The notes beneath the pieces were generated by a model, which was given only the letters and a program-made list of their open reading frames with translations, ran no database searches and was not told where the DNA came from. Source: an uncultured Candidatus Saccharibacteria bacterium (GTDB lineage Bacteria; Patescibacteriota; Minisyncoccia; Phycocordibacterales; VMEP01). From it: a stretch of DNA of 56,613 nt. Every line of letters starts with the position of its first letter. Position 1 is the stretch's first letter. Location of the stretch: the NCBI GenBank assembly GCA_964579635.1, contig CAZOFV010000001.1:71622-128234 (forward strand), in the 5' to 3' direction. This document shows, piece by piece, positions 10,837 to 47,668 of the stretch. Position numbers and translations under genes: made by a program.

Positions 10837-10867
10837 ATAAACGGCTTGCAATTGATACAAGCCGTTT

Positions 10868-11401
10868 TTAAGTTTTCCCCCTCTCTATTTTCACTAGTGG
10901 AATTTCCCCGAGTCCAAGTTTTGTCGTTGGAGTCCAAGGTTTAATTTCCACTAATACCTTTGGTTCAAATATCGGTATTTTCCCGACCGAACACTTAAGG
11001 ATATACCGATGAAAAAATTCATCATGGTAGAAAGTGCCGAGCACAAGAAATGTATTTTTGTGCCAAGAAGTTTTCTCGCAGTACGTAAGGACTTCACAAA
11101 GGTTCGCATACCGATAGAGAACCTTATCTTCAAGCGCTTGCTCCCTTAACTCCTTTTCAAATTGTTCGACGGTAAAATTACTACCTACCGAAGTAAAAAC
11201 GATTTGAATCTGGTAGGAATTTCCTCCAGAAACAGAATAACCAGATGTTTTTGCGCGAGAGACAAGACGTGCATTTCCCTTTAATTCCGTGACCGCACTT
11301 TCATTGTCTTTCCTTTCGGATATTGCCGGATAGAGGAACCCGGCATAGCGTTCGTATTCTGTTGGGATGACCAGAATATTTTTACCTGATCTTATCTTCA
11401 T
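10868..11401 (-). CDS. Hypothetical protein (orphan cassette-like gene)
   Basis: 177-aa ORF converging on the rnhA terminator hairpin (10839-10867). Confidence 0.6.
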   Translation of the reverse strand: MKIRSGKNILVIPTEYERYAGFLYPAISERKDNESAVTELKGNARLVSRAKTSGYSVSGGNSYQIQIVFTSVGSNFTVEQFEKELREQALEDKVLYRYANLCEVLTYCEKTSWHKNTFLVLGTFYHDEFFHRYILKCSVGKIPIFEPKVLVEIKPWTPTTKLGLGEIPLVKIERGKT

Positions 11402-11484
11402 AAGGCGCCCTTTAAAAGAATTGACTAGCTTTATTCTTCCACAAGCTTTTGTTTTTGTATATATCTATGCGGTATTATAAATAA

Positions 11485-12972
11485 GTGAAAAATAATTCAC
11501 TTATCGTTTTATTTTCAGGTTTTGCCTTAGGGGTTATTGGTGAATCATATTTACGATTTAGTTTTTCGTTTTTCATTTTATTTTTTCTTCTTTCGATAGT
11601 ATTTTCTTTTTTAAAATATTTTACAGAAAGACAATTTTCGTCTTTTATTTTATCTTTATTTTTTCTTGGAGTGGCGCTTGGTGCCATGCGGGCAGATTAT
11701 TCTGATTATAGATTTAGTCAGACTAAAAACAACTTAAATAGTTTTATTGGGGTACCCTATAGTTTTGAAGGTGTCGTTTTTGGTGGTGTTTCACACAAGG
11801 AACAGACAGTAAAATTTTTTGTTTCACTCAATAATGTTCTTGTCGGCGAAGAAAAAGAAAATGTTGAAGGAAATATTTTAGTGACAGCCTCTCGAGAGAT
11901 GGATGTTTCTTATGGTGATAACATTCAATTTTTGGGAACAATCACAGAGCCGAAAAGTTTTGTGACAGATAAAGGAAGTTTTTTTAACTATCAAGAATAT
12001 TTAACAACTCGTGGAGTTCATGCGATTGCCTTGTATCCCAAAATAAACAAGATTGATAGAAGTGACATCAATATTATTGGAAGACTTGTAAACTTAAAGA
12101 ATTCTTTTGAAGAAAAAACTAAAACTATTTTCCCTGAACCAGAAGCTTCTTTATTGAATGGAATTTTATTTGGAACCAATGATTCATTAGGCGAACCATT
12201 AACAACAAATCTTAAAAATACTTCAACAATTCATATTGCGGTGTTGTCTGGTTACAACATCGCTTTAGTTGTTATTGCTTTGTTGTTTTTGACATCATTT
12301 TTACCGAAAAGAATCAGCATTCTTTTTTCAGTCTGTGGAATTATTTTATTTGTTGCCATGGTTGGAGCAGAACCACCAGCAGTGCGTTCTGCGATTATGG
12401 CAGTGATTGCTCTTCTCGGGATTATTTTAGGAAGACCATACGATGCGGGGCGAGCTTTATTTATTGCCATGGTTTTAATGCTTTTAGAAAATCCAGCGAT
12501 TTACAATAATCCATCCTTCATTCTTTCTGGTCTTGCAACATTTGGAATAATATTTTTTACACCACTAGTTTCATTGTTTTTTTATTTTTTAACAAACAAA
12601 TATAATTTTCGAGAGCTTTTTTCAACCACAATTTCTGCACAGTTTTCTGTAACCCCATATTTAATTTATCTTACAGGGATGTTTTCAATTACCGCATTAC
12701 CTGCAAATATTCTGATTCTTCCCGTTGTTCCATTTATTATGATTTTTGGTTTTATTTCCGTTTTAGCCAGCTTTGTTATTGGAGTATTCGCGCTTCCTTT
12801 TGTCGGCATAACACAAATGATGCTTTCATACCTTCTATCAATTGTTTCTTTTTTTGGCGGTTTATCTTTTGCATCAATTGAGCTTAGTGGTTTTTCTAAG
12901 ACTGTAACATTTTTGATATATGGTTTAATTGTTGTAGCTTTTTTGTTTACGAAAAAATTAATTAGAAAATGA
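11485..12972 (+). CDS. comEC: ComEC/Rec2 competence membrane protein (DUF4131 plus Competence domain)
   Basis: HIAVLSGYNI, RSAIM, NPSFILS; many TM helices. Confidence 0.9.
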   Translation: MKNNSLIVLFSGFALGVIGESYLRFSFSFFILFFLLSIVFSFLKYFTERQFSSFILSLFFLGVALGAMRADYSDYRFSQTKNNLNSFIGVPYSFEGVVFGGVSHKEQTVKFFVSLNNVLVGEEKENVEGNILVTASREMDVSYGDNIQFLGTITEPKSFVTDKGSFFNYQEYLTTRGVHAIALYPKINKIDRSDINIIGRLVNLKNSFEEKTKTIFPEPEASLLNGILFGTNDSLGEPLTTNLKNTSTIHIAVLSGYNIALVVIALLFLTSFLPKRISILFSVCGIILFVAMVGAEPPAVRSAIMAVIALLGIILGRPYDAGRALFIAMVLMLLENPAIYNNPSFILSGLATFGIIFFTPLVSLFFYFLTNKYNFRELFSTTISAQFSVTPYLIYLTGMFSITALPANILILPVVPFIMIFGFISVLASFVIGVFALPFVGITQMMLSYLLSIVSFFGGLSFASIELSGFSKTVTFLIYGLIVVAFLFTKKLIRK

Positions 12973-13838
12973 AAACAAATTTTCAAAAATATTATCCAAT
13001 ATTTTTCATTGCAATTTTATTTGTGATAAATATTTTTATTTGGAGCGTAGTTTTGCGCGATGAGAAAACAAAAGAACTCACCGTTGCTTTTTTAGATGTT
13101 GGTGCCGGAGATTCAATTTATATTGAGGCACCAAATGGAAATAAAATGTTGATTGATGGAGGTCTCGATAGAAGTGTTGTTCGTGAGCTTTCAGAAATTA
13201 TTCCATTTTACGAAAGAACTATTGATGTGGTATTGGCGACACATCCTGACAAAGATCACATTGGAGGGTTGGTTGATGTTTTAAAAAATTACGAAACAAA
13301 AATGATTTTAACAACCGGCGCGACTTCAACGACCGAGATAGACAAAGCTTTTGGAAAAGCAATTATTGATGAAGAAAAATTTGGTGCGAAAAATATTTTA
13401 GTAAAACGCGGGAGTGTTGTGAATTTGTCTGAAGATGTTTCGTTCACTGTTCTTTATCCTGTTAGTGTTAACCCGAAAGGATCAACAAACGATACTTCAA
13501 TTGTTGGGATGTTAACTTATGGCAATCAATCTTTTTTACTAACAGGGGATGCTCCACAGAAAGTAGAAAGATATTTGGTTTCAGTTGATAGCAAAAAATT
13601 AAAAGCTCAAGTTTTGAAAGTTGGACATCATGGTTCTAAAACATCTTCGAGTGAACTTTTTATTGGAAACGTTTCGCCGGATTATGCGATTATTTCAACT
13701 GCTAAGAAAAATAGATATGGTCATCCAAACAAGGAAGTAATTGATTTGTTAAAAAAATATAATATTCCAATGCTCGCAACATACGACTTTGGAAAAATAA
13801 TTTTTAAAACAGACGGAGAAACTCTTACTCATAATTAA
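12969..13838 (+). CDS. ComEC-associated metallo-beta-lactamase-fold nuclease, encoded separately
   Basis: LDVGAGDS, THPDKDHIGG, LTGDA, KVGHHGS, NRYGHP; N-terminal TM helix; overlaps the comEC stop. Confidence 0.9.
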   Translation: MKTNFQKYYPIFFIAILFVINIFIWSVVLRDEKTKELTVAFLDVGAGDSIYIEAPNGNKMLIDGGLDRSVVRELSEIIPFYERTIDVVLATHPDKDHIGGLVDVLKNYETKMILTTGATSTTEIDKAFGKAIIDEEKFGAKNILVKRGSVVNLSEDVSFTVLYPVSVNPKGSTNDTSIVGMLTYGNQSFLLTGDAPQKVERYLVSVDSKKLKAQVLKVGHHGSKTSSSELFIGNVSPDYAIISTAKKNRYGHPNKEVIDLLKKYNIPMLATYDFGKIIFKTDGETLTHN

Positions 13839-13887
13839 AAAACCCCTTGATGTTATCTCGGGGTTTTTGGTTGCGTGACCAGAACGG

Positions 13888-14442
13888 TCACTTAATGTTG
13901 GCTTTCGCAAGTGCTGCGGAGACGGTTTCGCGGATGCTTTTGTAGATCGGGAAGTCTGGATGTATCGCTGCCTTGAAATTGCGCCCGATTACATCAAGCC
14001 CGGGGAAGCCCTTTTCACCGCCGACCACGATTCGCAGAAAGTGGTCGTTCCTCAGCCGTCCGCGCCATTCGCCGAGTTCTCCGCGGGTGTCCATTGCATA
14101 CGGCAGACCATCACTGCGTGGGTTTGTTTTGCTTTCTTCGGGGAGCCAGAAAATAATGCAACCATGCCCTGAAGCAAGGTAGAGGTAATATCTTTCCCAG
14201 TCGAGCTGGTGTTCGTAGACGCCAGTTTTTCCCGATACCTTGAAGTTTCGCAGGAAATGGTTTTGATTGTAGCGTTGAGGAATAGCGACAAGAAAGTCGC
14301 GTTCACCAAGTTGGCTCCTGATTTCACCGCACATCGAGTATTGCCAGTCTCCACCGCCTAAAACTGGGCCGGCGAGGAAAAAGAGAGGTAGATCACCGTA
14401 GTCGAAAAGACCTACATGTTCTTTTGGGAGGATAATTTTCAC
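13888..14442 (-). CDS. Nucleoside 2-deoxyribosyltransferase-like protein
   Basis: FLAGP..DWQ, QLDWE, IIFW, T.GELG pattern; SD AAGGAG; GC-richer codons. Confidence 0.65.
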   Translation of the reverse strand: MKIILPKEHVGLFDYGDLPLFFLAGPVLGGGDWQYSMCGEIRSQLGERDFLVAIPQRYNQNHFLRNFKVSGKTGVYEHQLDWERYYLYLASGHGCIIFWLPEESKTNPRSDGLPYAMDTRGELGEWRGRLRNDHFLRIVVGGEKGFPGLDVIGRNFKAAIHPDFPIYKSIRETVSAALAKANIK

Positions 14443-14532
14443 GAGGTACTCCTTTTTAAGGTTAGTCTTATTTTAAGCTACATTAAATTAATTTATCGTG
14501 CAACAAAAAATCCGCCGAGTGGCGGATTTTAC

Positions 14533-14742
14533 CTATTTCACAGAAGGGTGGAGGAGGTGTTTACCTGCTTTCATACAGCGGGTGCATATTTTTTGGCGTT
14601 TTCCGTCAGTCATTTTTGCCCATTGCAAATTAACCTGTAGTCTAACTTTTCCGGTTGGGTTGAATTTAGTAGCACGAATTCGATTAGAATATCCGCCACC
14701 TACTAGACTTCCTCTCTCACAAATTGGACAAATTTTCGCCAT
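14533..14742 (-). CDS. rpmB: 50S ribosomal protein L28
   Basis: CPIC..., VNLQ, ICTRCMK. Confidence 0.9.
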   Translation of the reverse strand: MAKICPICERGSLVGGGYSNRIRATKFNPTGKVRLQVNLQWAKMTDGKRQKICTRCMKAGKHLLHPSVK

Positions 14743-14780
14743 ATATTTAGTCGCCGTATGCTATCATGTGCACCATATAT

Positions 14781-15401
14781 ATGCAAGAAATAGATTTTAT
14801 TTTTACTATCGCGGCGCTCATTATGTCTGTTGTTGTTCATGAGGTTTCTCATGGATATATTGCAGATATTTTAGGAGATCCGACAGCGCGTTTTTCTGGG
14901 CGACTAACCCTTAACCCACTAAAACACCTTGATCCAATAGGATCGTTCCTTATTCCGACGCTCTCTTATTTTTCAGCAGGATTTCTTTTTGGTTGGGCAA
15001 AACCAGTTCCATATAATCCATATAATCTAAAAAACCAAAGATGGGGTGAGCTTATGGTTGCTGCCGCTGGTCCTCTCTCAAATTTTTTAATTGCCATTGT
15101 CTTTGGGTTAATTATTCGTTTTTCTTCCAATTTTGGAATAGAGAGCACGGCTTTCCTTTCACTTTCCACTTCGATTGTATTTCTTAATATTATTTTAGGT
15201 GTTTTTAATTTGGTGCCAATTCCACCTCTCGACGGATCGAAAGTTCTTTTTTCTCTTTTGCCTGCTAAGTTTGGCTACATACAAGAGAATTTAGAGCGAT
15301 ACTGGCCAATCGCCCTTATAATTTTCATCTTCTTTCTCTGGCAGTTTATTGAGCCCATTGCTCGCTTTTTATTTTTATTTATAACTGGCGGATTGTTTTA
15401 A
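14781..15401 (+). CDS. Site-2 protease (peptidase M50)
   Basis: HEVSH, AGPLSN, NLVPIPPLDG. Confidence 0.93.
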   Translation: MQEIDFIFTIAALIMSVVVHEVSHGYIADILGDPTARFSGRLTLNPLKHLDPIGSFLIPTLSYFSAGFLFGWAKPVPYNPYNLKNQRWGELMVAAAGPLSNFLIAIVFGLIIRFSSNFGIESTAFLSLSTSIVFLNIILGVFNLVPIPPLDGSKVLFSLLPAKFGYIQENLERYWPIALIIFIFFLWQFIEPIARFLFLFITGGLF

Positions 15402-15482
15402 TAAACTAAAAACACAAAGCTTGCTAGATAATTTTTGTGTTGTATAAATAAATAAGACTCGTTCATATAAGGAGAAAAAACC

Positions 15483-15956
15483 ATGAGTTCTGTTTCTATT
15501 CCGAAACCACAGACGGTTTTGTCGACTGAAGCTTTTTTAGATTCTCTTGATAAAACAAACTCAATGTTTCAAATGGTAGAAAGAGCGCTATTATTTCCCA
15601 ACAATCAAATAAGGTGTATTTATAAAAAAGATTCGCAGTTATGCGAAATGATTATGGGGAGAAAAAGTGTTTATCGTCTGCCGATTATCGACAAACCATT
15701 ACAGGTCGTGATTGAGGCCGGCGATTTCCACGAAATAATAACAGGGGCGCTCTATTCGTATCATCTCGTTTCAAAGGGTGGTGATATAAACGTGCGCAAT
15801 AATTTGATTTGGGGGGAACTTTATTGTCGTGCCGGTTACGGATACTACTTTACGGGGGCTTATGGCAACGACCGCTCGGTAATTATTTCGGAGCAAGACT
15901 ATAAGCCAGATGTTTTTGACAAGGATTTGTTAATTAGGCTTGGGTTCAGTTTTTGA
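15483..15956 (+). CDS. Hypothetical protein (orphan cassette gene)
   Basis: 157-aa ORF, SD AAGGAG, own terminator 15961-15993. Confidence 0.7.
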   Translation: MSSVSIPKPQTVLSTEAFLDSLDKTNSMFQMVERALLFPNNQIRCIYKKDSQLCEMIMGRKSVYRLPIIDKPLQVVIEAGDFHEIITGALYSYHLVSKGGDINVRNNLIWGELYCRAGYGYYFTGAYGNDRSVIISEQDYKPDVFDKDLLIRLGFSF

Positions 15957-16095
15957 ACCTCCCGCTGTATCGTAAGATGAGCGGGATTTTTTTATATTTA
16001 CCTAAGTTATCTCTAATGTAGAAAAGGGCTTGCATAAAAACTCGTAGAATAGTAGTATTTCCCCACAAGCCTCATTGAGGCAGTTTAATTTTTTC

Positions 16096-16521
16096 ATGCC
16101 CACAATTAATCAACTTTCCAAAAAAGGAAGAAAGAAAATAATCCGCAAACCAAAAGCGGTGGCTTTGCTCAAGGGTTTTAATGCTATTCAAAATAGACCT
16201 ATTTTCTATAACTCTCCTTTTAAGCGTGGTGTTTGTACAAAAGTTACAACTACAACTCCTAAGAAACCAAACTCAGCTCTCCGTAAAATTGCCCGTGTTC
16301 GTCTTACAAACGGAATGGAAGTGACCGCCTATATCCCAGGAATTAAGCACAACCTACAAGAACACGCAGTTGTCGTTCTTCGTGGTGGCCGTGTCAAAGA
16401 CCTAACTGGAGTTCGTTATCACATTGTTCGTGGTGTTCTTGATACGACAGGTGTTGAAAACCGTAAACAAGGAAGAAGTCTTTATGGTGCTAAAAGACCA
16501 AAAGAGGGTGCAAAAAAATAA
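16096..16521 (+). CDS. rpsL: 30S ribosomal protein S12
   Basis: [25 protein letters not shown]. Confidence 0.98.
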
Positions 16522-16527
16522 TTTAAT

Positions 16528-16998
16528 ATGCGAAAAAAAGTAAAAAACCGAAATATTCCAGGACCAGACCTACAATACAACTCTCCTAAAGTAGAGAAGT
16601 TTATAAACTATGTTATGGGGAGTGGAAAGAAAAACACCGCCCGAAAAATAGTTTACGGAGCTTTTGACATTATTAAGGAAAAAACAAAGAATCCTAACCC
16701 TCTTGAGATTTTTGATCTAGCTCTCAAGAACGCAAGCCCAGTTATGGAGGTTCGTTCTCGTCGAATTGGAGGTGCAAACTACCAAGTTCCTCGTGAAGTT
16801 CGCCCAGAAAGACGTATGATGCTTGCGTACCGTTGGATGATTGATGCAGCAAAATCAGGAAAAGGACGCCCAATGCACGAAAAACTAGCTGATGAATTGA
16901 TTGGTGCAAGTAAAAACGAAGGTGTTGCCATTAAGAAAAGAGACGATACTCACAAAATGGCCGAAGCCAACAAGGCATTTGCTCACTTCACTTGGTAG
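16528..16998 (+). CDS. rpsG: 30S ribosomal protein S7
   Basis: [23 protein letters not shown]. Confidence 0.98.
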
Positions 16999-17111
16999 AG
17001 AGAGAAAAACAAAAGACCCGCGAAAGCGGGTTTTTTGTTTGACATACTCTATTAATTAACGTATTGTGCGAAAAGTTATTGTAGTCTAATCATACACAGA
17101 GGAGACAGAAT

Positions 17112-17306
17112 ATGGGAAACAGAGCCATATTAAGGAAAATACCGCAAGAAATTCAAAGGCGGTATAACATTGGGCCAGAGGTCGAGGTGGTCGTGAGCGG
17201 CGAAAGCATGGGAGGTAACTTTTCATTCGAAAACCTCAATGGCCAAACCGTTGGTGTCGACGCCGTGGAATTGTCTGGCACCGAAATCACGATTCAGTTC
17301 TTGTAG
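17112..17306 (+). CDS. Small hypothetical protein (weak AbrB/MazE-like pattern)
   Basis: SD GAGGAG, TTGACA at 17039, terminator 17331-17352; IPQEIQRRYNI. Confidence 0.6.
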   Translation: MGNRAILRKIPQEIQRRYNIGPEVEVVVSGESMGGNFSFENLNGQTVGVDAVELSGTEITIQFL

Positions 17307-17458
17307 CCATTCCGCACTATCGTGCTTCAACACCCCGCAATGCGCGGGGTGATTTATTTCCAGGTTGTTAATTTAATCAAAATATGTAAATATGTCGCTT
17401 ATTGCCGTTGAGGCCTTTATTTTTTTTGTATTTAATTTTAATAAAATAATTAATTTTT

Positions 17459-19618
17459 ATGAATCGCGATTACCCATTAGAAAAAACAAGAAACTTCGGA
17501 ATTATTGCCCACATTGATGCTGGTAAAACAACCACGACTGAACGCGTGCTTTACTACACTGGAAAATCTCACAAAATCGGTGAAGTTCACGAAGGTGATA
17601 CTGTCATGGATTGGATGGAGCAAGAACGTGAACGTGGAATCACTATCACGTCTGCGGCTACAACTTGTTTTTGGGTACCTACTTATGAAGGTGGCGATAA
17701 GTCAAAAGGATTTCGTTTTAATATTATCGACACGCCTGGACACATCGACTTTACTGTTGAGGTAAAGCGTAGTTTGCGTGTTTTGGACGGTGCTGTCGTT
17801 GTTTTCGATGGAGTTGCTGGTGTTGAGCCACAATCAGAAACAAACTGGCGTTATGCCGATGAAGGGCAAGTGCCAAGAGTTTGTTTTATAAACAAACTCG
17901 ATCGTACTGGTGCATCTTTTGAAAAATCTTACCAATCTATTTTAGACAGGTTAAGCAAGAGCGCTATTCGTGTGCAGATTCCTATTGGAGAGGAAGATAA
18001 ACATGAAGGAGTTATTGATCTTTTGAAGATGAAGGCCTATAGATTTGAGGGAAACATGGGAGACGACGTTATTGAGAGTGAAATTCCAGAAGATCTTAAA
18101 GCTGATGCTCAAAAATATAGAAATGAACTCGTAGAAAAAATAGTTGAGAATGATGAGAAGTTTTTAAGTGAGTATCTTGAAGGAAAAGAAATTTCAATCG
18201 AGGATTTGAAAAAAATAATGCGTAAGGCAGTTATTGGAAATAAAATTTTCCCAGTATATTGCGGTTCTGCATTGAAAAATAAAGGAGTTCAGCTTGTTTT
18301 GGATGGCGTTGTTGAATATCTACCAGCACCAACAGACATTCTTCCTGCAAAGGGGACTGACCCAAGAACAGGAGCAGAGATTACACGTTCTGCTTCAGAT
18401 GAAGAGCCATTTGCTGCACTTGCCTTCAAGCTTCAAACAGACCCGTTTGTTGGTCAGCTTACATTCTTCCGTGTTTATTCTGGAACAGTTGAGGCTGGTT
18501 CTTATCTATACAACTCAACCACTGGTGAAAAAGAAAGATTAGGTCGTATTTTAAGAATGCACGCTAATCAAAGAGAGGAAGTTAAAAAAGTTTTTGCTGG
18601 AGAAATTGCGGCAGCTGTTGGTCTAAAGAGCACAAGAACATCAGATACTCTTTGTGATGAAGCAAACCCCATTCTTTTGGAACGTATTGTTTTTGCTGAA
18701 CCAGTTATCTCTCTCCGTATTGAACCAAAAACAAAAGCAGATCAAGAAAAAATGGGTATGGCATTACGTAAACTAGCCGACGAAGATCCAACATTTAAGG
18801 TTTCAACTGATACTGAAACTGGCGAAACAATTATTTCCGGTATGGGTGAATTACACCTTGAAATTATTGTTGATCGTATGAAGCGTGAATTCTCCGTTGA
18901 AGCGAATGTTGGTAAACCACAAGTTGCCTACAAAGAGACAATTACTAAAGAAGCAGAAGTTGATAATAAATATATTCGTCAGACCGGTGGTCGTGGACAA
19001 TATGGTCACGTTAAAATTAAAATCAAACCACTTTCAAAAGAAGTTCCTGAAAACATACCAAGAAATACAAAGCGTGAAAAAGGATTTGAATTTATCAACA
19101 ATATTAAGGGAGGTGTTATTCCGCTTGAATATATCCCAGCTGTTGAAAAAGGTTTACGTGAAGGTATGGATAGAGGAGTTCTTGCTGGTTTTAAGCTTGT
19201 TGATATCTCTGTTGATCTCTACGACGGATCCTTCCACGAAGTTGACTCATCTGAAATTGCTTTCAAGATAGCAGCATCACAAGCTCTTCAAGAAGCAGCT
19301 CGTCGTGCATCACCTGTTATTCTTGAACCTATCATGAAGGTTGAAGTTGTTACTCCAGAAAAGTTCATGGGTGATATTACTGGAAACCTTTCTTCAAAGC
19401 GTGCCCAAATTGAAGGTATGACCGACCGTGGAATGCTTAAGGTTATTGCGGCGAAAGTCCCATTGTCTGAAATGTTTGGTTATATGACATCTTTAAGATC
19501 TCTTACAGAAGGACGTGCTGGATTTACAATGGAATTTGACCATTACGATATTGTGCCTGCAAATATCGCGAAAAGTATTATCGAAACTCGCACAGCTGGC
19601 AGTGCTTCAACTGAATAA
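17459..19618 (+). CDS. fusA: Elongation factor G
   Basis: [31 protein letters not shown]. Confidence 0.98.
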
Positions 19619-19645
19619 TTACAAGGTCGAACCTTGTAAGATTAC

Positions 19646-19683
19646 ATGAGAAAAGCGGGCCCGAAGGTCCGCTTTTTGTTTGG
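19646..19683. repeat. 38-bp bidirectional terminator repeat, copy 1
   Basis: ATGAGAAAAGCGGGCCCGAAGGTCCGCTTTTTGTTTGG; 1 mismatch to 19969-20006. Confidence 0.9.
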
Positions 19684-19698
19684 CGACAGAACGAAAGA

Positions 19699-19896
19699 TC
19701 AGTATGGTTCTTGGGTAAGAGCTTCAACTTCATCCACCGAAGCCTCCACCAAGATGACGTCATCCCTTGGGATATCAATCATGCAGTGCCCAAAGCAATG
19801 AAAGTAATTCTCCCCCATACCGGAAGTTCCAATGTTGGAACCGCCACAGCATGGACAAACACACTTCATTTTCTTTTTGCCAACTATTTTTATCAC
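19699..19896 (-). CDS. Small Cys-rich (Zn-ribbon-like) hypothetical protein
   Basis: CVCPCCG...CFGHC; SD AGGAGG before GTG; ends at the repeated terminator. Confidence 0.7.
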   Translation of the reverse strand: MIKIVGKKKMKCVCPCCGGSNIGTSGMGENYFHCFGHCMIDIPRDDVILVEASVDEVEALTQEPY

Positions 19897-19968
19897 GTTA
19901 ACCTCCTGAGGACTGTTTAACTGCTTTTACTACTTTACCTTGTTGTTTATTTTTTGCAAAAGTGGAAA

Positions 19969-20006
19969 ATGAGAAAAGCGGACCCGAAGGTCCGCTTTTT
20001 GTTTGG
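19969..20006. repeat. 38-bp bidirectional terminator repeat, copy 2
   Basis: ATGAGAAAAGCGGACCCGAAGGTCCGCTTTTTGTTTGG. Confidence 0.9.
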
Positions 20007-20013
20007 TTTCTGC

Positions 20014-20280
20014 CTAGCTTTCATTCCGGAAAAGCTTGCCAGTCAAGACGAGGTTGTCGCCCTTTTTTGCAACAACCCGTTCGAAAATGACCATCTCGTC
20101 TTCCTGGCTTCTGCAAATCCTTCGGATTTCCCGAAGAACCAGTGCAACCAGCTCCTCGTTTGGGATGTGAGGTGGATATTCAACCTCAATTTTTCCGACA
20201 AAAACCCAGACAGGGGCAGGAAACTCATGTGACGGCACGTATAAATCATTGCCGACATCGCAAAATACAAAATTCGCCAT
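20014..20280 (-). CDS. Small acidic hypothetical protein
   Basis: Perfect SD AGGAGGTGA before ATG; minus-strand TTGACA near 20359; ends at the repeated terminator. Confidence 0.7.
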   Translation of the reverse strand: MANFVFCDVGNDLYVPSHEFPAPVWVFVGKIEVEYPPHIPNEELVALVLREIRRICRSQEDEMVIFERVVAKKGDNLVLTGKLFRNES

Positions 20281-21752: not shown

Positions 21753-21760
21753 ATTAATTC

Positions 21761-36100: not shown

Positions 36101-36102
36101 TA

Positions 36103-39726: not shown

Positions 39727-39806
39727 CAAGCCTCTTTAAAGGTTGCGAAATGGGGGTATTTTTTGTTAGGATAAGCCATTAAACAGTTAATTAGATTTCT
39801 AAATTT

Positions 39807-40283
39807 ATGGCTCACGAGAAAAAAGAAACATCGCTTATTATTTTTAAACCAGACACTCTTCAAAGAGGTTTGCTTGGAGAGATGATTCATCGTTTTGAAA
39901 GAAAGGGTTTGAAAATTCGCGGACTCAAAATGATGCAATTAGAAGACGTGATTCTTGAAGAGCACTATGCTCACATAAAAGATAAACCATTTTTTGGTGG
40001 AATAAAGGAGTATATGAAAGCGACACCAGTAGTTGTTTTTGCTGTAACAGGAATTAATGCGATCTCAGCAATCCGCACTATTATAGGACCAACGAAAGGA
40101 CACGAAGCTCCAGCAGGGACAATCCGCGGAGATTTTTCTATGAGTGGTCAATCAAACATCGTTCACGCCTCAGATTCAAAAGAATCAGCAGAAGCAGAAT
40201 TAAAGCGTTTCTTTAGAGAAGATGAGTTGTTTGATTACGAACGACCTAATTTTCCTTTTATCTACGCCGACGAAGCATTCTAG
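39807..40283 (+). CDS. ndk: Nucleoside diphosphate kinase
   Basis: KPD, GTIRGDF, NIVHASDS. Confidence 0.96.
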   Translation: MAHEKKETSLIIFKPDTLQRGLLGEMIHRFERKGLKIRGLKMMQLEDVILEEHYAHIKDKPFFGGIKEYMKATPVVVFAVTGINAISAIRTIIGPTKGHEAPAGTIRGDFSMSGQSNIVHASDSKESAEAELKRFFREDELFDYERPNFPFIYADEAF

Positions 40284-40462
40284 TTGATTAAAATAATCAT
40301 AATTTCTGGTAAATATCAGAAATAGTTTGTTAAATATAATTATTTTAACTATGACGGTAAAATAATTATATAAATCAAGTAGTTTTTGGAACTAAGCTTA
40401 CTCGAGAATAAATTTCTATCGGGGTCAATATTGCAAACGTGTTCTTCAGTGATACGATTTAA

Positions 40463-40594
40463 GTAGGGTTATTTGGGAGGTTATCTAGATCAAGTCATTA
40501 GTTCCGGGAGCTTAGCTTACATTACGTCTTGGCGCAGTGTAGAGGGCACCCACGTATTACTACGCTAGTGGCTAACTTCACTAAGTAACCCTAA
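40463..40594 (+). ncRNA. ssrS: Probable 6S RNA (compact)
   Basis: Ends pair into a long rod; internal GGGAGCTTA and GAGGGCACCCAC motifs; TTGCAA-16-TACGAT promoter; terminator 40595-40627. Confidence 0.65.
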
Positions 40595-40679
40595 AGAAAG
40601 ATTCCTGCAGAGCAGGATTTTTTCTTTTCTGGAATGAATGTTAGAATACAGAGACGATAGGTAGTCTTTCTTCGAACGA

Positions 40680-42053
40680 ATGGCAATTTCAAAAAAATTA
40701 AAACTTTCATTTTTCGGTGGAGCTGGTGAAGTAACTGGCTCCAATTTTCTTATTGAAGTAGAAGGCAAGAAAATATTAGTTGATTGCGGTTTATATCAAG
40801 GATGCAAAATTGGTGATGCGAGAAATCTCGACCCTCTTTCATATAATGCGGCTGAAATTGACGTTGTTTTCGTTACCCACGCTCATATCGACCACATTGG
40901 GCGTATTCCAAAGCTTGTTAAAGACGGTTTTCGTGGGGAAATATACTCTACAGTACCAACAAAAGAAATAGGAGAGCTATCATTAATGGATAGTCTTGGT
41001 GTTTTAGGTAAGGAAGCTAAAAGGGATAATCATCCAGTTATTTATCACGAAGACGATGTTATTCGCGCTGTTAAATTATGGAAAACTGTTAAATATCATG
41101 AGCCTGTAAAGGTTGGAGAAAATATTTCAGTTGTATTAAGAGATGCTGGACATATCTTAGGTTCAGCGATGGTTGAGATTACATACAACGGAAAGAAAAT
41201 TTTATTTACTGGAGATCTTGGAAATTCACCAGCCCCATTGCTTCGTGATACAGAAGAGGTAACAGATGCTGATTATATGGTTATTGAAAGTGTTTATGGT
41301 GATCGTAATCATGAAAGCGTTGATGAGCGAAAGAAAAAAACAGAACAAGTAATAGAAGACACAATTAGTAAGGGTGGAGTCCTTATGATTCCAGCTTTTT
41401 CAGTAGAACGAACACAAGATCTTTTGCTTGAAATAAACAATCTTGTTGAAAACAAAAGAATTCCATCGGTTCCAATCTTTTTAGATTCTCCGCTTGCTAT
41501 AAACGTCACAAAAATTTATAAAAATAACCAAGATTTTTTTAATAAAGAAACCCTGGGAATTATTCATGGTGGTGATGATATTTTTAATTTTCCTGGCTTA
41601 AAACTTACCCCAACAACAGAAGAATCTAAAAAAATTATTGATTATCCAAATCCAAAAATAATTATTGCGGGATCTGGTATGTCAAACGGAGGAAGAATAG
41701 TGCATCACGAGCAGAACTATCTTCCTGACCCAAAAAGCACTCTAGTGCTAATTGGATACCAAGCAGTAGGTACTCCAGGAAGAATGCTTCAAGAAGGTGC
41801 TAAAAAAATAAGAATAAACGGTACAGAAGTTGAGGTTAAAGCAAGCGTTGTTAATATCTCTGGATATTCTGCCCACAAAGACGGCGATCATTTATTTAAA
41901 TTTGTTAAAAAAACAGCAGACTCATTAAAAAAAGTTTTTGTCGTGCACGGAGAACCAAAAACATCGATGTTTTTTGTTCAAAGACTACGAGACTACTTGG
42001 GTCTTGATGCAGTCGCCCCTCAAGCCGGAGAATCAATTGAGATTGATTTCTGA
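40680..42053 (+). CDS. MBL-fold beta-CASP RNA-processing nuclease
   Basis: THAHIDHIG, AGHILGS, ESVYG, GSGM, SAH.D, HGE. Confidence 0.92.
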   Translation: MAISKKLKLSFFGGAGEVTGSNFLIEVEGKKILVDCGLYQGCKIGDARNLDPLSYNAAEIDVVFVTHAHIDHIGRIPKLVKDGFRGEIYSTVPTKEIGELSLMDSLGVLGKEAKRDNHPVIYHEDDVIRAVKLWKTVKYHEPVKVGENISVVLRDAGHILGSAMVEITYNGKKILFTGDLGNSPAPLLRDTEEVTDADYMVIESVYGDRNHESVDERKKKTEQVIEDTISKGGVLMIPAFSVERTQDLLLEINNLVENKRIPSVPIFLDSPLAINVTKIYKNNQDFFNKETLGIIHGGDDIFNFPGLKLTPTTEESKKIIDYPNPKIIIAGSGMSNGGRIVHHEQNYLPDPKSTLVLIGYQAVGTPGRMLQEGAKKIRINGTEVEVKASVVNISGYSAHKDGDHLFKFVKKTADSLKKVFVVHGEPKTSMFFVQRLRDYLGLDAVAPQAGESIEIDF

Positions 42054-42070
42054 TATAATAAAAATAACAT

Positions 42071-42706
42071 ATGGAAGAAAACGATAAGCATTTTCACAAT
42101 AGAATAAGATTATGTGTTTCTGGTGCCGCCGAAACTGCCCACTGTGGTATTGGCGCTCTTGAAAAAGCAAAAGAGCTAGGAAGACAAATTGCTCTACAAG
42201 GAGCAATTTTAGAAAACGGAGCAACAACTGGATTTCCTTTGTGGGCAGCCATTGGCTCGAAAGAGGTAAGTGGCATAGTTGTCGGCTTTTCTCCTGCAGC
42301 AAACGAAAAAGAACACCGAGAGGTTTATCGTCTACCTGTTGATTATCACGACATAATTGTTTACACAGGATTTGGTTATTCTGGTCGCGATTTGCTTCTA
42401 ACTCGTTCAGCAGAAGCGATTATTATAGGTTGTGGTCGTATTGGTACTGTTCATGAATTCACTATTGCTTACGAGGATGATAAACCAATCGGTATTTTAC
42501 AGGGCGATTGGGATATGGATGAAGTTTTAAAAAATATTATGGATAAAAGTAATCGTGTGAATAGTAAGATTATTTTTGAATCCGACCCAAAGAAGCTTGT
42601 TGAGAAAATTATAGAGAGTGTAAAAAAGGACAGAGCTATACGAGGGGAGACAACACGATTACCCAATACTCCAAGCAACGAAGAACTTTTAAAAGCTGTT
42701 CAGTAA
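42071..42706 (+). CDS. LOG/SLOG-family nucleotide-binding protein
   Basis: GATTGFP, TGFGYSGRD, GRIGT.HE. Confidence 0.8.
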   Translation: MEENDKHFHNRIRLCVSGAAETAHCGIGALEKAKELGRQIALQGAILENGATTGFPLWAAIGSKEVSGIVVGFSPAANEKEHREVYRLPVDYHDIIVYTGFGYSGRDLLLTRSAEAIIIGCGRIGTVHEFTIAYEDDKPIGILQGDWDMDEVLKNIMDKSNRVNSKIIFESDPKKLVEKIIESVKKDRAIRGETTRLPNTPSNEELLKAVQ

Positions 42707-42750
42707 AAACAAAAAAACCACCAATTGGTGGTTTTTTTTGTTTGTTTAGT

Positions 42751-43101
42751 TTATTTAGATATTGCGAACTCTACAATCCTTTTGAAACTTTCTGGTTTCT
42801 TGTCTGCGATATCAGACATAACCTTTCTGTCTATCTCGATATTTTTTAGTTTCAAGATATTGATGAATTTGCTGTATGAAAGACCGTGTGGACGAATCGC
42901 TGCGTTGATGCGAACTGTCCAAAGGCGACGAAAATCATTTTTCTTGTCTTTTCTGTGAGCAAAAGAATATTTTCCAGCATGAACCAAAGCGTCATGGGCC
43001 ATGATTTCTTTTGTTGAACGACCAAAACGAAAACCCTTTACCTTCTTAAGGACGTTACGTCGTGTCTTGCTTGCAATTGTTCCTCTTTTTACTCTTGTCA
43101 T
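42751..43101 (-). CDS. rplT: 50S ribosomal protein L20
   Basis: RVKRG, FRRLW..RINAA. Confidence 0.97.
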   Translation of the reverse strand: MTRVKRGTIASKTRRNVLKKVKGFRFGRSTKEIMAHDALVHAGKYSFAHRKDKKNDFRRLWTVRINAAIRPHGLSYSKFINILKLKNIEIDRKVMSDIADKKPESFKRIVEFAISK

Positions 43102-43111
43102 GTTATTTAAA

Positions 43112-43309
43112 TTATTTCTGTTTTAATCCTGGGAAAAAACGACTCTTTTCTTTGTTTGTCATAGTAAAAGGAACTCCACGCTTTCCTGCGAGTTGTTTCT
43201 CTCGACTTTGCTTAGCATTGAAATGGTTAAAACCTGGCTTTCGACCAATAATTTTACCGTTCTTTGTTACACGGAGTCTTTTTGAAAATGATTTGTTTGT
43301 TTTTGTCAT
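43112..43309 (-). CDS. rpmI: 50S ribosomal protein L35
   Basis: KTNKSFSKRLRVTKNGK; between infC and rplT. Confidence 0.93.
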   Translation of the reverse strand: MTKTNKSFSKRLRVTKNGKIIGRKPGFNHFNAKQSREKQLAGKRGVPFTMTNKEKSRFFPGLKQK

Positions 43310-43327
43310 TTATTTGCTTGTTCGGAG

Positions 43328-43849
43328 CTAGTTTTTCTTAGTGTCTCTTTCGAGGACAATACTATATCCTTTTGGCCCCTTTTTAAAAGGGTCTGCAACT
43401 TTGTAGTTTTCGCTAATCAAAACAAGAATACGTTCGAGGCGACTTTTGAGGAATTTTTCCTCCATATACTTCGCGCGCCCCGCTAAATATAGGTCTGCTC
43501 TAACGCGATGGCCATCTTTAAGCCATTCTGACGCTTTTTTGGCTTTTATGCCGAGATCGTGCTCAGAAGTGCCGATTTTAACCTGAACCGTCTTGGTTTC
43601 GGTCACATGAGCGTGAGCCTTGATTTTCTTGTTTTTCTTGCTCTGCTCGTACTGAAATTTACCATAATCCATTATTTTTGCAACCGGTGGGACTATGTCT
43701 GGCGATATTTCAATCAAATCCATCCCTTTTTCCTTGGCTTTGGCTAAGGCGTCAGCAAACGACATAACGCCTAAATTCCCATCTTCGTTATCAATGATAC
43801 GTAATTCAGTGGCTCTTATTTGATTGTTTATGCGAAGTTTAACGGACAC
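43328..43849 (-). CDS. infC: Translation initiation factor IF-3
   Basis: INNQI, DLIEI, PPVAKIMDYGKF; non-ATG start (GTG, or ATA 12 nt upstream). Confidence 0.95.
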   Translation of the reverse strand: MSVKLRINNQIRATELRIIDNEDGNLGVMSFADALAKAKEKGMDLIEISPDIVPPVAKIMDYGKFQYEQSKKNKKIKAHAHVTETKTVQVKIGTSEHDLGIKAKKASEWLKDGHRVRADLYLAGRAKYMEEKFLKSRLERILVLISENYKVADPFKKGPKGYSIVLERDTKKN

Positions 43850-43915
43850 GTGTTTATTTATTCAGTGAATTGTAGCCGAGAAGGTGTGAATAATCAATGG
43901 TTTAATGGAATGCTT

Positions 43916-43991
43916 TGGTGGACCATACCGGATTCGAACCGGTCGCCTCATCCATGCCATGGATGCGCTCTACCAAATGAGCTAATGGCCC
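43916..43991 (-). tRNA. tRNA-Ala(GGC)
   Basis: Cloverleaf; anticodon stem CATCC/GGATG with loop ATGGCAT; G3-U70; encoded CCA. Confidence 0.95.
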
Positions 43992-44074
43992 TTTAAATTT
44001 TTGAAACACTATATCAAACCAAACAAAAACAGCCCAACTTTCATCGGGCTGTTTTTGTTTCTATTAATTAAAAA

Positions 44075-44233
44075 CTATTTCTTTGAAGGAAGGATTTTGT
44101 ACATTCCAGTTCCACACACTGTACATGTACCCTTTGCTGCAGGGCGTCCAGGCTTTATTTCAGTCTGCTGAACATCCTTCATCTCACGCTTTTCCTTACA
44201 CTTCACACAATACCCAATTATTTTTTCATCCAT
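44075..44233 (-). CDS. Small Zn-ribbon protein, DUF5679-like (52 aa; below the ORF-track cutoff)
   Basis: MDEKIIGYCVKCKEKREMKD...GRPAAKGTCTVCGTGMYKILPSKK. Confidence 0.8.
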   Translation of the reverse strand: MDEKIIGYCVKCKEKREMKDVQQTEIKPGRPAAKGTCTVCGTGMYKILPSKK

Positions 44234-44387
44234 AGTTATATAGTCTAGCCTATTTTAGGGTAAATACACAAGGGAGGTTAAGGCAGAGCAATTTTTTTGG
44301 TTTGACCTTTGCTTGATTATCATGTAGTAGTTAGTGCTAGTAGTTGTTGGATTTTCAATCAATGGGATAGAAAAGGAAAAAACAATC

Positions 44388-45800
44388 ATGTACATTTCAA
44401 CTCGTGGTTTTAATTCATCGCTTAGTTTTGCTGACACGGTGCTCAAGGGGATTGCACCAGACGGCGGTTTATACGTTCCCGAGAAGATTTTCCAGTTTGC
44501 CGAGTACGATATTCGTCGGCTTGCCGGACTTTCCTACACGGAGGTTGCAAAGATTGTCATGGACCGGTTTGCTCCGGACATGGACAAGGCTGCGCTTCAT
44601 GGCGCGATAGACAAGGCTTATACCCCCGACGTTTTTGCAAACGTCACTGACAAGGGGGATAATCCTGCCGACATCGTTCCGGTGCGACGTCTCTTTGGGC
44701 ATAGCATATATCTTGCTCGGCTGAGCAATGGGCCAACTCTCGCGTTCAAGGATCTGGCGTTGCAGTTGCTTGGCCACCTCTTTGAAATCGTTCTCGACGG
44801 GAAACCGCTCAACGTGCTTGGGGCAACGTCAGGCGACACGGGGTCGGCGGCTATCCACGCCATGCTCGGAAGAAAGGGTATACGTGTTTTCATGCTCTCT
44901 CCGCACGGCAGGATGAGTCAGTTTCAATCGGCTCAGATTTTGGGCGTCAACGACCCGATGATTCACAACATTTCGGTCAACGGTTCGTTCGACGATTGCC
45001 AAGACGTAGTGAAGGCTGTTAGCGGAGACGCTAGCTTCAAGGAGGAGTACAACATCGGCGCCGTAAACTCAATCAATTGGGCAAGAGTTGCTGCGCAAGT
45101 GGTTTACTATCTTTGGCTTTACTCGCGTATTCGTGGTGGCGACGGTGGCCCAATTGATGTTTCTGTCCCGACAGGGAATTACGGCAATATCTATGCAGCC
45201 TGGGTTGCGAAAATGATGGGGTTGCCGATTCGTCGGCTGATTCTCGCAACAAATGAAAACGACGTTTTGCATGAATTCTTCACAACGGGCATTTACAGAC
45301 CACGAGTGAAGACCCTTGAAACATCGAGCCCATCGATGGATATCACTAAGGCGTCGAATTTCGAGCGTTACGTTTTCGATATTTTCGGTGGCGATGCAAC
45401 CAAGGTTGCATCGCTGTGGTCGGCGCTCGAAAAGAAGGGGCAGTTTGATTTGTCGCACAGGATGGCGAAGATTCGCGAGACCGGTATTACTTCATGCGCA
45501 GTTCGGCAGAAGCAGGTCGACGAGACCATCTACTACATCTTCAAGAAGTGTGGCACCATCATCGATCCTCATACGGCAGTGGCAATGTATGCGGCAATCA
45601 ACACGGAGCAATCCGGCGTGCCGATGGTCGTGACGGAGACGGCTCAGCCTTGCAAGTTTGACCTCGCTATCAAGCGAGCGCTTGGTTTCACCGTATCGCC
45701 TCCTTCAAGTATGAAGGACCTTATGTCCGCAAAGCAGTTCTTTACGCAGATGGATCCAAATGTCGAAGCGACCAAGGATTTCATTCGCGCGCGAGCGTAA
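44388..45800 (+). CDS. thrC: Threonine synthase
   Basis: MYISTRG, DGGLYVP, GPTLAFKD (PLP Lys), ATSGDTG, NSINWAR, VPTGNYG, DPHTA. Confidence 0.93.
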   Translation: MYISTRGFNSSLSFADTVLKGIAPDGGLYVPEKIFQFAEYDIRRLAGLSYTEVAKIVMDRFAPDMDKAALHGAIDKAYTPDVFANVTDKGDNPADIVPVRRLFGHSIYLARLSNGPTLAFKDLALQLLGHLFEIVLDGKPLNVLGATSGDTGSAAIHAMLGRKGIRVFMLSPHGRMSQFQSAQILGVNDPMIHNISVNGSFDDCQDVVKAVSGDASFKEEYNIGAVNSINWARVAAQVVYYLWLYSRIRGGDGGPIDVSVPTGNYGNIYAAWVAKMMGLPIRRLILATNENDVLHEFFTTGIYRPRVKTLETSSPSMDITKASNFERYVFDIFGGDATKVASLWSALEKKGQFDLSHRMAKIRETGITSCAVRQKQVDETIYYIFKKCGTIIDPHTAVAMYAAINTEQSGVPMVVTETAQPCKFDLAIKRALGFTVSPPSSMKDLMSAKQFFTQMDPNVEATKDFIRARA

Positions 45801-45919
45801 GTTTCGCAGGTTTCAAACCTGGCCTTCGGGCCAGGTTTTTTTATTGTGGCGTGAAATTTAAATGGTAAAAAATAAACCCATGTTTCCATGGGTTTTGAGA
45901 TGAGCCGATGTCAGCTTAG

Positions 45920-46327
45920 CTATCGCTCGACATAGCCCTTGCCGTTTTTGCCTAGCATCCAGAATCCGGCTTGACCAGCGCCAACGTCGGCACAGTTCCA
46001 GCTGAAACATCCGACGAATTGTGGTGGGTTTTTCTTGTAGGCAACCGCGTATTTCGGAACCTTGAAATCGTTAACCGGCAAGCCAATTGTTACCGCAGTG
46101 CCGATGAAAATCGGATTGCCACACCACGCACACTTGATTGCCATTTTGCCAATGCAGTCGAGGCAGTAGTCCACTGAGCCATTTTTGTTTATCGGCATTT
46201 TGGTTGTTATGGTGCGTCCGAAGGCCGAAACTATCCCGGTCCGTTTTGTGCGGTGTCCGCACTTTGTGGCTGTGTAGCGACGTAGGCTCAGGCGCCCGAG
46301 GTTAATCAACAAGTCACGTAGGTTCAT
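45920..46327 (-). CDS. Cys-rich hypothetical protein (cassette gene)
   Basis: CGH, CLDC, CAWC, C..WNC; SD AAGGAGG. Confidence 0.7.
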   Translation of the reverse strand: MNLRDLLINLGRLSLRRYTATKCGHRTKRTGIVSAFGRTITTKMPINKNGSVDYCLDCIGKMAIKCAWCGNPIFIGTAVTIGLPVNDFKVPKYAVAYKKNPPQFVGCFSWNCADVGAGQAGFWMLGKNGKGYVER

Positions 46328-46416
46328 TTGTTCCTCCTTGTTTGTTTGATGAGCGAATCTAAACTATTTCTAACACCTTATAGAAATATTTACAATTAAA
46401 GAAATAAGAGACGGGG

Positions 46417-47666: not shown

Positions 47667-47668
47667 AA

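Follow-up and report, generated by a model that had tools for sequence, protein, structure and literature searches.

Ribosomal-operon junctions of an uncultured Saccharibacteria genome as probable permissive slots for moron-like orphan gene units

Morons, as characterised in the passages of PMC3594210 that concern them, are additions between conserved phage genes that deviate in GC content and carry a promoter and a terminator of their own. T4-type phages, in the account that PMC2839356 gives of these motifs, contain about 50 similar promoter/stem-loop motifs (PeSLs) per genome, each spread over about 100 bp; according to the corresponding parts of PMC2839356 and PMC4122927, the motifs lie on either side of differential ORFans, which they delete or insert by recombining, and mini-circles have been observed. 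For cellular chromosomes, the portions of PMC8046335 on the conserved ribosomal operon cluster of Gammaproteobacteria and Bacilli describe gene insertions that were later lost in some descendants, with duplication and transposable elements discussed as insertion routes; the insertions analysed there lie mostly between operons (rpoBC-str, str-S10), with one within rpoBC, and consist of known genes. Here we analyse a 56,613-nucleotide stretch of DNA (the window) from an uncultured Candidatus Saccharibacteria bacterium, located at G000:C1:71622-128234 of the host genome G000 (Parcubacteria-type, 652,414 bp, 16 contigs, GC about 38%), in which the ribosomal str, S10 and spc genes at window positions 16075-35352, placed by open reading frame (ORF) listing and Pfam, are interrupted by small accessory genes with predicted regulatory signals of their own. 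Ribosomal-protein operons are among the most conserved bacterial gene arrangements, yet throughout this order of ultra-small bacteria the same five or six junctions are interrupted, and the gaps would nurture genes particular to a lineage, most of them orphans that bring their own signals.

The broken junctions are probably permissive transcription-unit boundaries, filled with moron-like units and turned over by general homologous and microhomology recombination. Under this reading, order-wide boundaries would lie at rpsG/fusA, fusA/tuf, rpsJ/rplC, rplB/rpsS, rplE/rpsN and sometimes secY/adk, each predicted to pair an intrinsic terminator 3' of the upstream gene with a conserved restart promoter and leader 5' of the downstream gene. 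The DNA between terminator and restart promoter would be free to vary and would therefore offer permissive slots in which lineage-specific genes persist. Within the genus, the slots would hold small, GC-rich, genus-restricted protein genes, each a self-sufficient unit of promoter, ribosome-binding site (RBS), ORF and terminator, and hence moron-like in architecture. Units would be lost by T-tail-to-T-tail deletion between successive terminators, removing exactly one unit, or would be deleted or homogenised by homologous recombination or gene conversion between local duplicates (an 84-nt promoter module, terminators of 27-38 nt); occasional gains would leave a duplicated terminator behind, and tandem duplication would also belong to this general remodelling.

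The window was compared with three further genomes of the genus (G001, G002 and G003), collinear with G000 at 73-96% DNA identity, and with the metagenome contig L075 and some run contigs. A 13-gene tree resolves the genomes as (G003,(G000,(G001,G002))), with all forks at 100/100. Orthologues for the ratio of nonsynonymous to synonymous substitution rates (dN/dS) were sought within the syntenic regions of G001-G003. The rplB/rpsS slot is composed of the following features:

25205-25288, plus strand: 84-nt module of promoter, 5' untranslated region (UTR), RBS and start, copy 1
25280-25696, plus strand: orphan ORF A of 138 aa; terminator at 25756-25787; G002 and G003 lack it; dN/dS 0.08 against G001
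25896-26162, plus strand: orphan ORF B of 88 aa; promoter at 25819-25847, terminator at 26193-26209; G002 lacks it; dN/dS 0.05-0.07
26223-26306, plus strand: 84-nt module, copy 2, 96% identical to copy 1
26298-26546, plus strand: orphan ORF C of 82 aa; bidirectional terminator downstream at 26572-26597; G003 lacks it
26888-26950, plus strand: rpsS restart promoter TTGACA-16-TAATAT with TG, short hairpin and U-tract leader; identical in four genomes

All three units, in the order A-B-C, occupy the slot in G000 and G001; G002 and L075 have just C, and G003 has just B. Each copy of the 84-nt module (P) contains a -35 and a -10 element, 5' UTR, RBS, ATG and two more codons, the first three codons reading MSR, and ORFs A and C are unrelated beyond MSR (Smith-Waterman z = 1.7). 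The arrangement rplB-terminator-P-ORF C of G002 and L075 is the exact product expected of recombination between the two P copies, and the rplB terminator of G003 bears the tail of the unit A terminator, as expected of a tail-to-tail deletion. On the tree, the joint absence of A and B from G002 is best explained by a single loss. The P copies are more alike within G000 (96%) than either is to its G001 orthologue (90% and 94%), and two positions are the same in both copies of a genome yet change from one genome to another; this within-genome agreement indicates gene conversion, that is, concerted evolution of the two modules.

The two slots around fusA contain the following:

17040-17353, plus strand: rpsG/fusA unit, with -35 TTGACA at 17039, RBS, ORF 17112-17306 (64 aa) and terminator 17331-17351 plus T-tail; dN/dS 0.06-0.08
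19646-19683, no strand: bidirectional terminator 3' of fusA, 38-nt module copy 1
19699-19896, minus strand: Cys-rich orphan ORF of 65 aa, enclosed by the two copies of the 38-nt terminator
19969-20006, no strand: 38-nt terminator module copy 2, 97% identical to copy 1
20014-20328, minus strand: fast-evolving ORF, 104 aa, with promoter 20359-20331 (minus); divergent homologues in the fusA/tuf slots of G002 and G003

The rpsG terminator hairpin and its T-tract run directly into the TTGACA at 17039. The unit that follows is present in G002 and G003 and precisely absent in G001, where the rpsG terminator tail is fused to the sequence 3' of the unit's own terminator tail (break after TTTGTTT versus after ATTTATTT), with 6-7 nt of T-rich microhomology at the joint; because only G001 lacks it, the tree favours a single loss there. 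At fusA/tuf, homology with G001, G002 and G003 stops at 19680-19681, where the fusA terminator ends, and is regained at 20393-20404, just ahead of the tuf promoter. ORF 20014-20328 is 25% identical to its G002 homologue and clusters with the G003 slot ORF. ORF 19699-19896 lacks a homologue at the syntenic loci of G001-G003, whose fusA/tuf slots carry other small ORFs; its relatives number two among 5.8e9 proteins, itself included, the other one being 85% identical and lying on a 44.8-kb contig. A contig of the independent run X7 spans 19412-21630 including this unit, which is likely a gain in the G000 lineage, flanked by the duplicated 38-nt terminator.

The rplE/rpsN slot carries one unit:

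30600-31275, plus strand: rplE/rpsN unit, with rplE terminator, -35 at 30640, ORF 30734-31195 (153 aa, GC 0.53) and terminator 31241-31275

The hairpin 3' of this ORF spans 31241-31266. Its orthologues in G001-G003 share 57-66% identity (dN/dS 0.09-0.18), and one also occupies the same slot of G008; a search of 251 sampled order genomes returned G000, G001 and one spurious match, with none in the other 248. Most unit differences among the relatives appear, from their distribution on the tree, to be lineage losses of units about as old as the genus.

An ORF is present at all 12 coordinates for which the first-pass annotation of this DNA had proposed accessory genes, most of them with their own promoter and RBS between terminators, and the ORF and Pfam listing confirms that units lie between rpsG/fusA, fusA/tuf, rplB/rpsS and rplE/rpsN. 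On direct reading, promoter-like hexamers, an RBS and a hairpin with T-tract flank 17112, 25280, 25896, 26298, 30734 and, on the minus strand, 20014. Against shuffled sequence this anatomy stands only in part: terminator-like sites are enriched in 10000-29999 (34 versus 18.5 +/- 5.0) and not in 30000-47000 (16 versus 14.0 +/- 3.8), and promoter-like consensus matches are at chance in both intervals (41 versus 43.3 +/- 7.8 and 45 versus 40.1 +/- 7.7, respectively). The -35 box, said often to start at the T-tract of the preceding terminator, does touch it at 17039, 30640 and 14504 (minus), but lies 6-7 nt past it at 25213 and 26231. The near-identical modules attributed to unrelated units are real as pairs of 84, 38 and 19 nt, the last being a T-tract/-35 junction identical at 17028 and 30629-30647, but they are not dispersed. 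Specifically, BLAST with eight module sequences finds exactly two copies of the 84-nt and of the 38-nt module, 0.3-1 kb apart, and none elsewhere in the 652-kb genome, and a metagenome scan with the 84-nt module core recovers one contig, at the same locus (L075). A composite of terminator and abutting promoter accounts for 7 matches (6 distinct sites) among 141 promoter-like sites genome-wide, all on contig C1. The boundaries of the ribosomal slots nevertheless coincide with terminator/promoter modules. Moreover, a strong promoter-like site, a short hairpin and a U-tract precede tuf (20409-20470), rpsS (26888-26950) and rpsN (31292-31350); the hairpins and U-tracts after these restart promoters are possibly leader attenuators.

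The slots extend beyond the genus. Twenty-seven cluster genes were located by tblastn in 20 further order genomes and in G000, G001 and G003 (23 genomes). Gaps exceed 250 bp at rpsG>fusA in 5/19, fusA>tuf in 21/21, rpsJ>rplC in 9/22, rplB>rpsS in 10/17, rplE>rpsN in 11/15 and secY>adk in 3/9 genomes, and the remaining 20 of the 26 junctions show no gap of this size in the 23 genomes. Crudely called gap ORFs number 113 in 100 clusters, 90 of them singletons. Among the 20 largest, 8 have no Pfam domain and 12 have one, the domains being ordinary cellular ones such as TruD, amidase_3, trypsin/PDZ (HtrA-like) protease, PDH_C, cold-shock, SDH protease, acyltransferase, pilin-like and GGDEF; one large gap ORF, in the fusA/tuf slot of G014, is a Y1 transposase. 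Elsewhere in the phylum, none of 29 genomes has more than 250 bp at rplB>rpsS (median 20 bp), and fusA>tuf exceeds that length at 11 of the 18 loci whose fusA end lies in the fetched flank, the fusA end not being found within about 1.5 kb in 7 further loci. These statistics identify fusA/tuf as loose phylum-wide and rplB/rpsS as an order-level break.

In chromosomal hotspots of gene gain, the same core flanks enclose different accessory content in related genomes. The order gaps behave as such accessory-gene hotspots, since they recur at the same junctions with differing content between the same core genes; they are unlike them in being very small (0.3-3 kb), within ribosomal operons and devoid of mobile-element genes. 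They also resemble the ribosomal-cluster insertions treated in the relevant portions of PMC8046335, in that small gene sets were inserted and later lost in some lineages, but the breaks here fall within the canonical str, S10 and spc operons, recur order-wide and hold mostly orphans. Full-text searching, as far as the retrieved texts go, found no description of such ribosomal-operon breaks in bacteria of the candidate phyla radiation (CPR); the passages available from a paper on CPR ribosomes remark only that uL30 is missing between uS5 and uL15.

Phage morons match the units in architecture. Like them, the units consist of a single ORF with its own predicted promoter and terminator, deviate in GC content and stand between genes that are adjacent in relatives: G001 lacks 17112, G003 lacks A and C, and G002 lacks A and B. 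The analogy drawn in the first-pass annotation therefore stands for architecture and GC and fails for context, because the units sit in a cellular chromosome inside ribosomal operons with no phage genes nearby, none of the 10 orphans tested matches PHROG, none of the 4 queried has relatives on viral contigs, and most of the units are genus-old.

Genome-wide, G000 was aligned to the 680-kb contig C7 of G001, which yielded 165 collinear breakpoints; 99 are replacements, and the clean insertions divide into 15 on the G000 side and 44 on the G001 side. Single-gene indels in spacers are numerous. Under a strict definition, 3 of 57 indel junctions fall in predicted terminator tail zones (null 0.04 per intergenic position, p = 0.63), and under a lenient one 10 of 59 lie at terminators (null 0.148, p = 0.38); with both counts at the null, terminators are not preferred break points genome-wide. 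The strict test excluded miniature inverted-repeat transposable element (MITE)-like indels with a filter that flagged just 2 of 59, and its "non-MITE" label is loose, as the repeat sits in many more segments, being common to 57 of 257 indel segments. A flanking direct repeat of at least 10 bp accompanies 16 of the 59 clean indels.

The MITE-like family itself is about 70-110 nt long, with inverted ends and a GC-rich core; one query gives 14 BLAST matches in G000 and 25 in G001:C7, and one copy lies at window 49421-49530. Another copy, at about 22330-22400 in the rpsJ/rplC slot, explains a spurious ORF at 22013-22423 (minus).

G000 contains 41 local direct-repeat pairs, of which about seven bound one small ORF and include a terminator or promoter. 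The unit C1:52936-53443 is repeat-flanked and absent in G001 and G003, and is therefore probably a gain; for the terminator-flanked units C1:52936 and C5:28904, G001 has a single module copy. The unit C2:7454-7906 is a tandem paralogue of an upstream 80-aa gene (56% aa identity), with its last 83 bp homogenised to 100%, and the pair is also present in G003. These observations bear on the possibility that PeSL-like cassette shuffling is the main route of gene acquisition here, units being excised as circles between module copies and re-integrated wherever the same genome or a related one offers a matching module. The topology is exactly as the PeSL model predicts: units lie between near-identical modules (P-A..B-P-C and T-19699-T, T being the 38-nt terminator), further units are flanked by repeats (C1:52936/53412, 32 bp; C5:28904/29213, 35 bp; C13:9222/9752, 27 bp), relatives show "empty" states with a single module, gene conversion shows that the P copies recombine, and two apparent gains have duplicated terminators. 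As with PeSLs, composite terminator-promoter junctions stand beside ORFans, deletion leaves one chimeric module, as in P-A..B-P-C (G000, G001) versus P-C (G002, L075), and the flanking module copies could give rise to circles. We nonetheless regard this shuffling as unlikely to be the main route. Each repeat pair is private to one locus, so that units cannot move elsewhere; rather than about 50 motifs per phage genome there are two adjacent copies per module and 7 composite matches (6 sites) in 652 kb, without the dispersed, conserved motif family that defines PeSLs; the repeats reach into genes, taking in the first 3 codons in P and the final 11 codons in C2:7454; one repeat-flanked unit is merely a tandem paralogue; the polymorphisms are mostly losses; and junctions show no genome-wide terminator enrichment. 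Among the contigs of four runs there was no dependable joint from module to module or of circular form, such contigs being unable to show rare forms; the joints listed have short sides, from conserved genes of other organisms.

The recombinase content of the genomes is sparse. Inside the window, PF00589, PF00239, PF00078 and PF01797 have no match, which bears out the earlier statement that no integrase or transposase lies there. Elsewhere, PF00589 identifies one syntenic Xer-like tyrosine recombinase per genus genome (G000:C1:54141-54650, outside the window), with two short extra copies in G001; PF00239 resolvases are lacking in G000 and PF00078 reverse transcriptases in G000-G003. PF01797 matches two Y1 transposases in G000 (IS200-like/RAYT-like; C9:8030-8813 and C2:64110-65000), both in G000-specific insertions that are flanked by and contain copies of their own perfect palindrome, which is unrelated to the unit terminators. 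None of these genes is linked to the units.

Integrons carry promoterless gene cassettes ending in attC, and an integrase gene with attI and the promoter Pc beside the array. The slots share with integron cassettes the arrays of single-gene units bounded by hairpin-forming sites and the presence/absence between relatives, and the junctions adjoin hairpins, duplicated hairpin segments of 27-38 bp look like attL/attR, and the genome has Y1 transposases, one of which in G014 occupies the fusA/tuf slot. A dedicated site-specific or hairpin-targeting element (integron-like, IS200/IS605-like through Y1, or Xer-dependent) that inserts units beside terminator hairpins would account for these features, yet it is very improbable. 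No integron-type integrase stands beside any array, the PF00589 match of G000 lying outside the window, next to no slot, and being a syntenic Xer-like gene; unlike integron cassettes, the units bring their own promoter-like sites; and their hairpins are GC-rich stems with T-tails, as is usual for intrinsic terminators, and differ in sequence between units and share no end motif (no attC model was run). In contrast to insertion sequences (IS) of the IS200/IS605 group, or to repetitive extragenic palindromes (REPs) and their associated tyrosine transposases (RAYTs), the Y1 genes of G000 lie outside the window and their cognate palindromes have nothing in common with the unit terminators.

The proteins themselves place further constraints on the origin of the units. 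The dispersed set comprises ten ORFs without a Pfam family, the threonine synthase gene thrC and one further ORF (45920-46327), and the members outside the ribosomal slots are as follows:

10868-11401, minus strand: genus-restricted orphan ORF, 177 aa, followed by hairpin terminator 10839-10867 (minus); no Pfam, PHROG or NCBIfam family; dN/dS 0.14-0.26
13888-14442, minus strand: GC-rich (0.51) gene of a widespread unnamed family; dN/dS 0.08-0.15
15483-15956, plus strand: genus-restricted orphan ORF of 157 aa, 5' of rpsL; the syntenic region of G002 lacks it
44334-45800, plus strand: threonine synthase (thrC), GC 0.51, next to tRNA-Ala; terminator at 45815-45838; the syntenic region of G002 lacks it
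45920-46327, minus strand: Cys-rich orphan ORF, 135 aa, with sub-threshold DUF2321 only; homologue in G003 only; starts a region replaced in relatives up to the transfer-messenger RNA (tmRNA)

None of the 10 orphans tested matches a Pfam family at E<=0.01, and the sole NCBIfam match among the orphans scores 15.8 bits against a cut-off of 450. The orphan status proposed for the set fails for 44334-45800, which is threonine synthase, and for 13888-14442, which is one of these ten and belongs to a large family (646 representative clusters at E<=1e-3). When members of this family were aligned, 9 of 35 matched PF15891 (nucleoside 2-deoxyribosyltransferase-like) weakly (best E 6.1e-5), and a profile search of the PDB gave no match below E 0.28. 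Among 13 family genomes, 10868-11401 is present in 4, all of genus g1, and 13888-14442 and 15483-15956 are likewise confined to g1; the absence of 15483 from G002 is best read on the tree as a single loss. ORF A has only 3 proteins among 5.8e9, itself included, and one source assigns the closest homologue of one orphan to a Parcubacteria group bacterium. With an orthologue in at least one of G001-G003, nine orphans and thrC have dN/dS of 0.05-0.26 and a synonymous divergence (dS) within the range of flanking core genes; they are therefore real protein genes under purifying selection, mostly genus-old. No same-genus orthologue was found for 19699-19896, and 20014-20328, with its 25%-identical homologue, is too diverged for dN/dS scoring.

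Ten of the 12 genes are at or above the 85th GC percentile among 718 crude ORFs of the genome, in agreement with the earlier remark that most of them are GC-richer than their neighbours. Composition is one of the features that argue against an in-situ origin, in which the orphans would be born within the slots by local duplication of promoter/terminator segments with rapid divergence, or by de novo ORF birth, without import. Orphan GC (0.44-0.53) is far above that of the genome (0.38) and the AT-rich spacers and is retained in all genus members, unlike what birth from local non-coding DNA would give; the window orphans resemble neither one another (no pair above z 2.0 in pairwise Smith-Waterman comparison) nor their neighbours; and 13888-14442 clearly has a wide foreign family. 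The homogenised tandem paralogue at C2:7454-7906, the inclusion of the start codon and 3 codons in the P duplication, the near lack of relatives of ORFs A and 19699 (3 and 2 proteins) and the very fast-evolving ORF family in the fusA/tuf slot point the other way, and on balance we hold an in-situ origin to be quite unlikely.

Collectively, these results reshape the cassette system that the first-pass annotation had proposed, with terminator/promoter modules as recombination points. Whole-unit differences do end at T-tails or in the 84-nt module, and the T4 PeSL analogy captures the topology of a few units. A dedicated or PeSL-like system, though it may account for the few repeat-flanked gains, is disfavoured by indel junctions at the null rate genome-wide, by the lack of an associated enzyme, by polymorphisms that are mostly losses of old units, several of them conserved and syntenic within the genus, by modules that have just two local copies each, and by the ordinary, unrelated genes that the same junctions hold across the order. 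The units thus carry a warning that moron-like anatomy and shared regulatory modules can arise without mobile-element machinery.

Several points weigh against permissive boundaries turned over by general recombination. The promoters, terminators and transcription units are all predictions only. The genus is represented by only four genomes, a single contig and a few run contigs; every genome is a metagenome bin, in which some local duplications could be assembly errors; and gap ORFs in other genera were called crudely, as longest ORFs; the worry over assembly errors is lessened by the presence of the A-B-C array in G001 as well and of the 19699 unit in the run X7 contig. Deletion alone leaves the 84-nt module shared by A and C, and the duplication of the 38-nt terminator, unexplained, and PeSL-like integration would leave such traces. 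Two repeat-flanked units, 19699-19896 and C1:52936-53443, look like gains. Finally, among indels of at least 250 bp, 7 of 28 junctions lie at terminator-like hairpins (null 0.148, p = 0.11), possibly a weak trend. A bolder proposal, which we put forward as a quite improbable one, is that terminators in ribosomal operons are landing pads, alongside which units integrate, duplicating 27-38 bp, and from which they leave by recombination between the duplicated modules; if true, it would give the chromosome a recombinase-independent equivalent of the PeSL/moron exchange of phages, feeding orphans into the most highly expressed part of the genome. The slots form a compact, easily aligned system in which to measure orphan gain and loss in uncultured CPR bacteria and to ask whether terminators and promoters bias where new genes survive.

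Between ORF C and rpsS, the rplB/rpsS slot holds one further feature:

26565-26870, minus strand: candidate small RNA (sRNA) of about 290 nt with conserved blocks, bordered by the terminator of ORF C and the promoter of rpsS

Across five sequences, the candidate consists of a near-invariant 135-nt 5' domain, a hypervariable hairpin and a conserved 3' hairpin with terminator, and compensatory changes occur in 5 of 68 predicted pairs. It is flanked by a conserved minus-strand promoter-like site (26894-26866) and by terminator 26597-26572. When 26590-26890 is folded as a single sequence, neither strand outperforms its shuffles (z 0.01 and 0.48), and an E-value Rfam scan of 26500-27000 gave only sub-threshold sRNA and leader matches on the terminator hairpin. 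An identity as RNase P RNA was rejected, as RF00010 matches G000:C6:8641-8989 instead. A DNA search found the candidate in 2 of 301 sampled order genomes (G000 and G001), and it was found solely in this genus. In L075 (reverse complement), from a metagenome strain, an element of 122 nt bounded by 13-nt inverted ends interrupts the rpsS start codon at about 850-972, and a short duplication restores the start. At fusA, locus L014 (G002:C11) has the first approximately 40 nt of the gene doubled around a 120-nt insert at about 8960-9420, beside an N run, which reflects either a genuine insertion accompanied by a long target duplication or an error of assembly.

Gene order 3' of the ribosomal cluster is adk, map, a 915-aa type-IV coupling-protein-like gene, ndk, infC, tRNA-Ala, thrC and tmRNA. 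The coupling-protein homologue (TraG/VirD4-like, 36979-39726, 3' of map) is strongly conserved (dN/dS 0.03-0.05), and the spacer ahead of it (36874-36978) is enlarged by 2.7 kb in G003 and by 1.2 kb in G002. The stretch from tRNA-Ala to tmRNA (43898-49471) is a replacement hotspot: thrC and 45920 are both missing in G002, window 45841-49471 has no match in G001, and G001 holds 1.6 kb extra at tRNA-Ala. Between tRNA-Ala and thrC, a 52-aa ORF with two CxxC pairs (44075-44233, minus) probably encodes a small zinc-ribbon protein. Contig C16 of G000 (2393 bp) has a GC content of 60% versus 36-40% in all other contigs and is therefore probably foreign to this genome bin. An Rfam scan of the window at gathering thresholds returned nothing beyond the tmRNA and two tRNAs; a tRNA-Ile with anticodon TAT, uncommon in bacteria, lies at 53690-53764.

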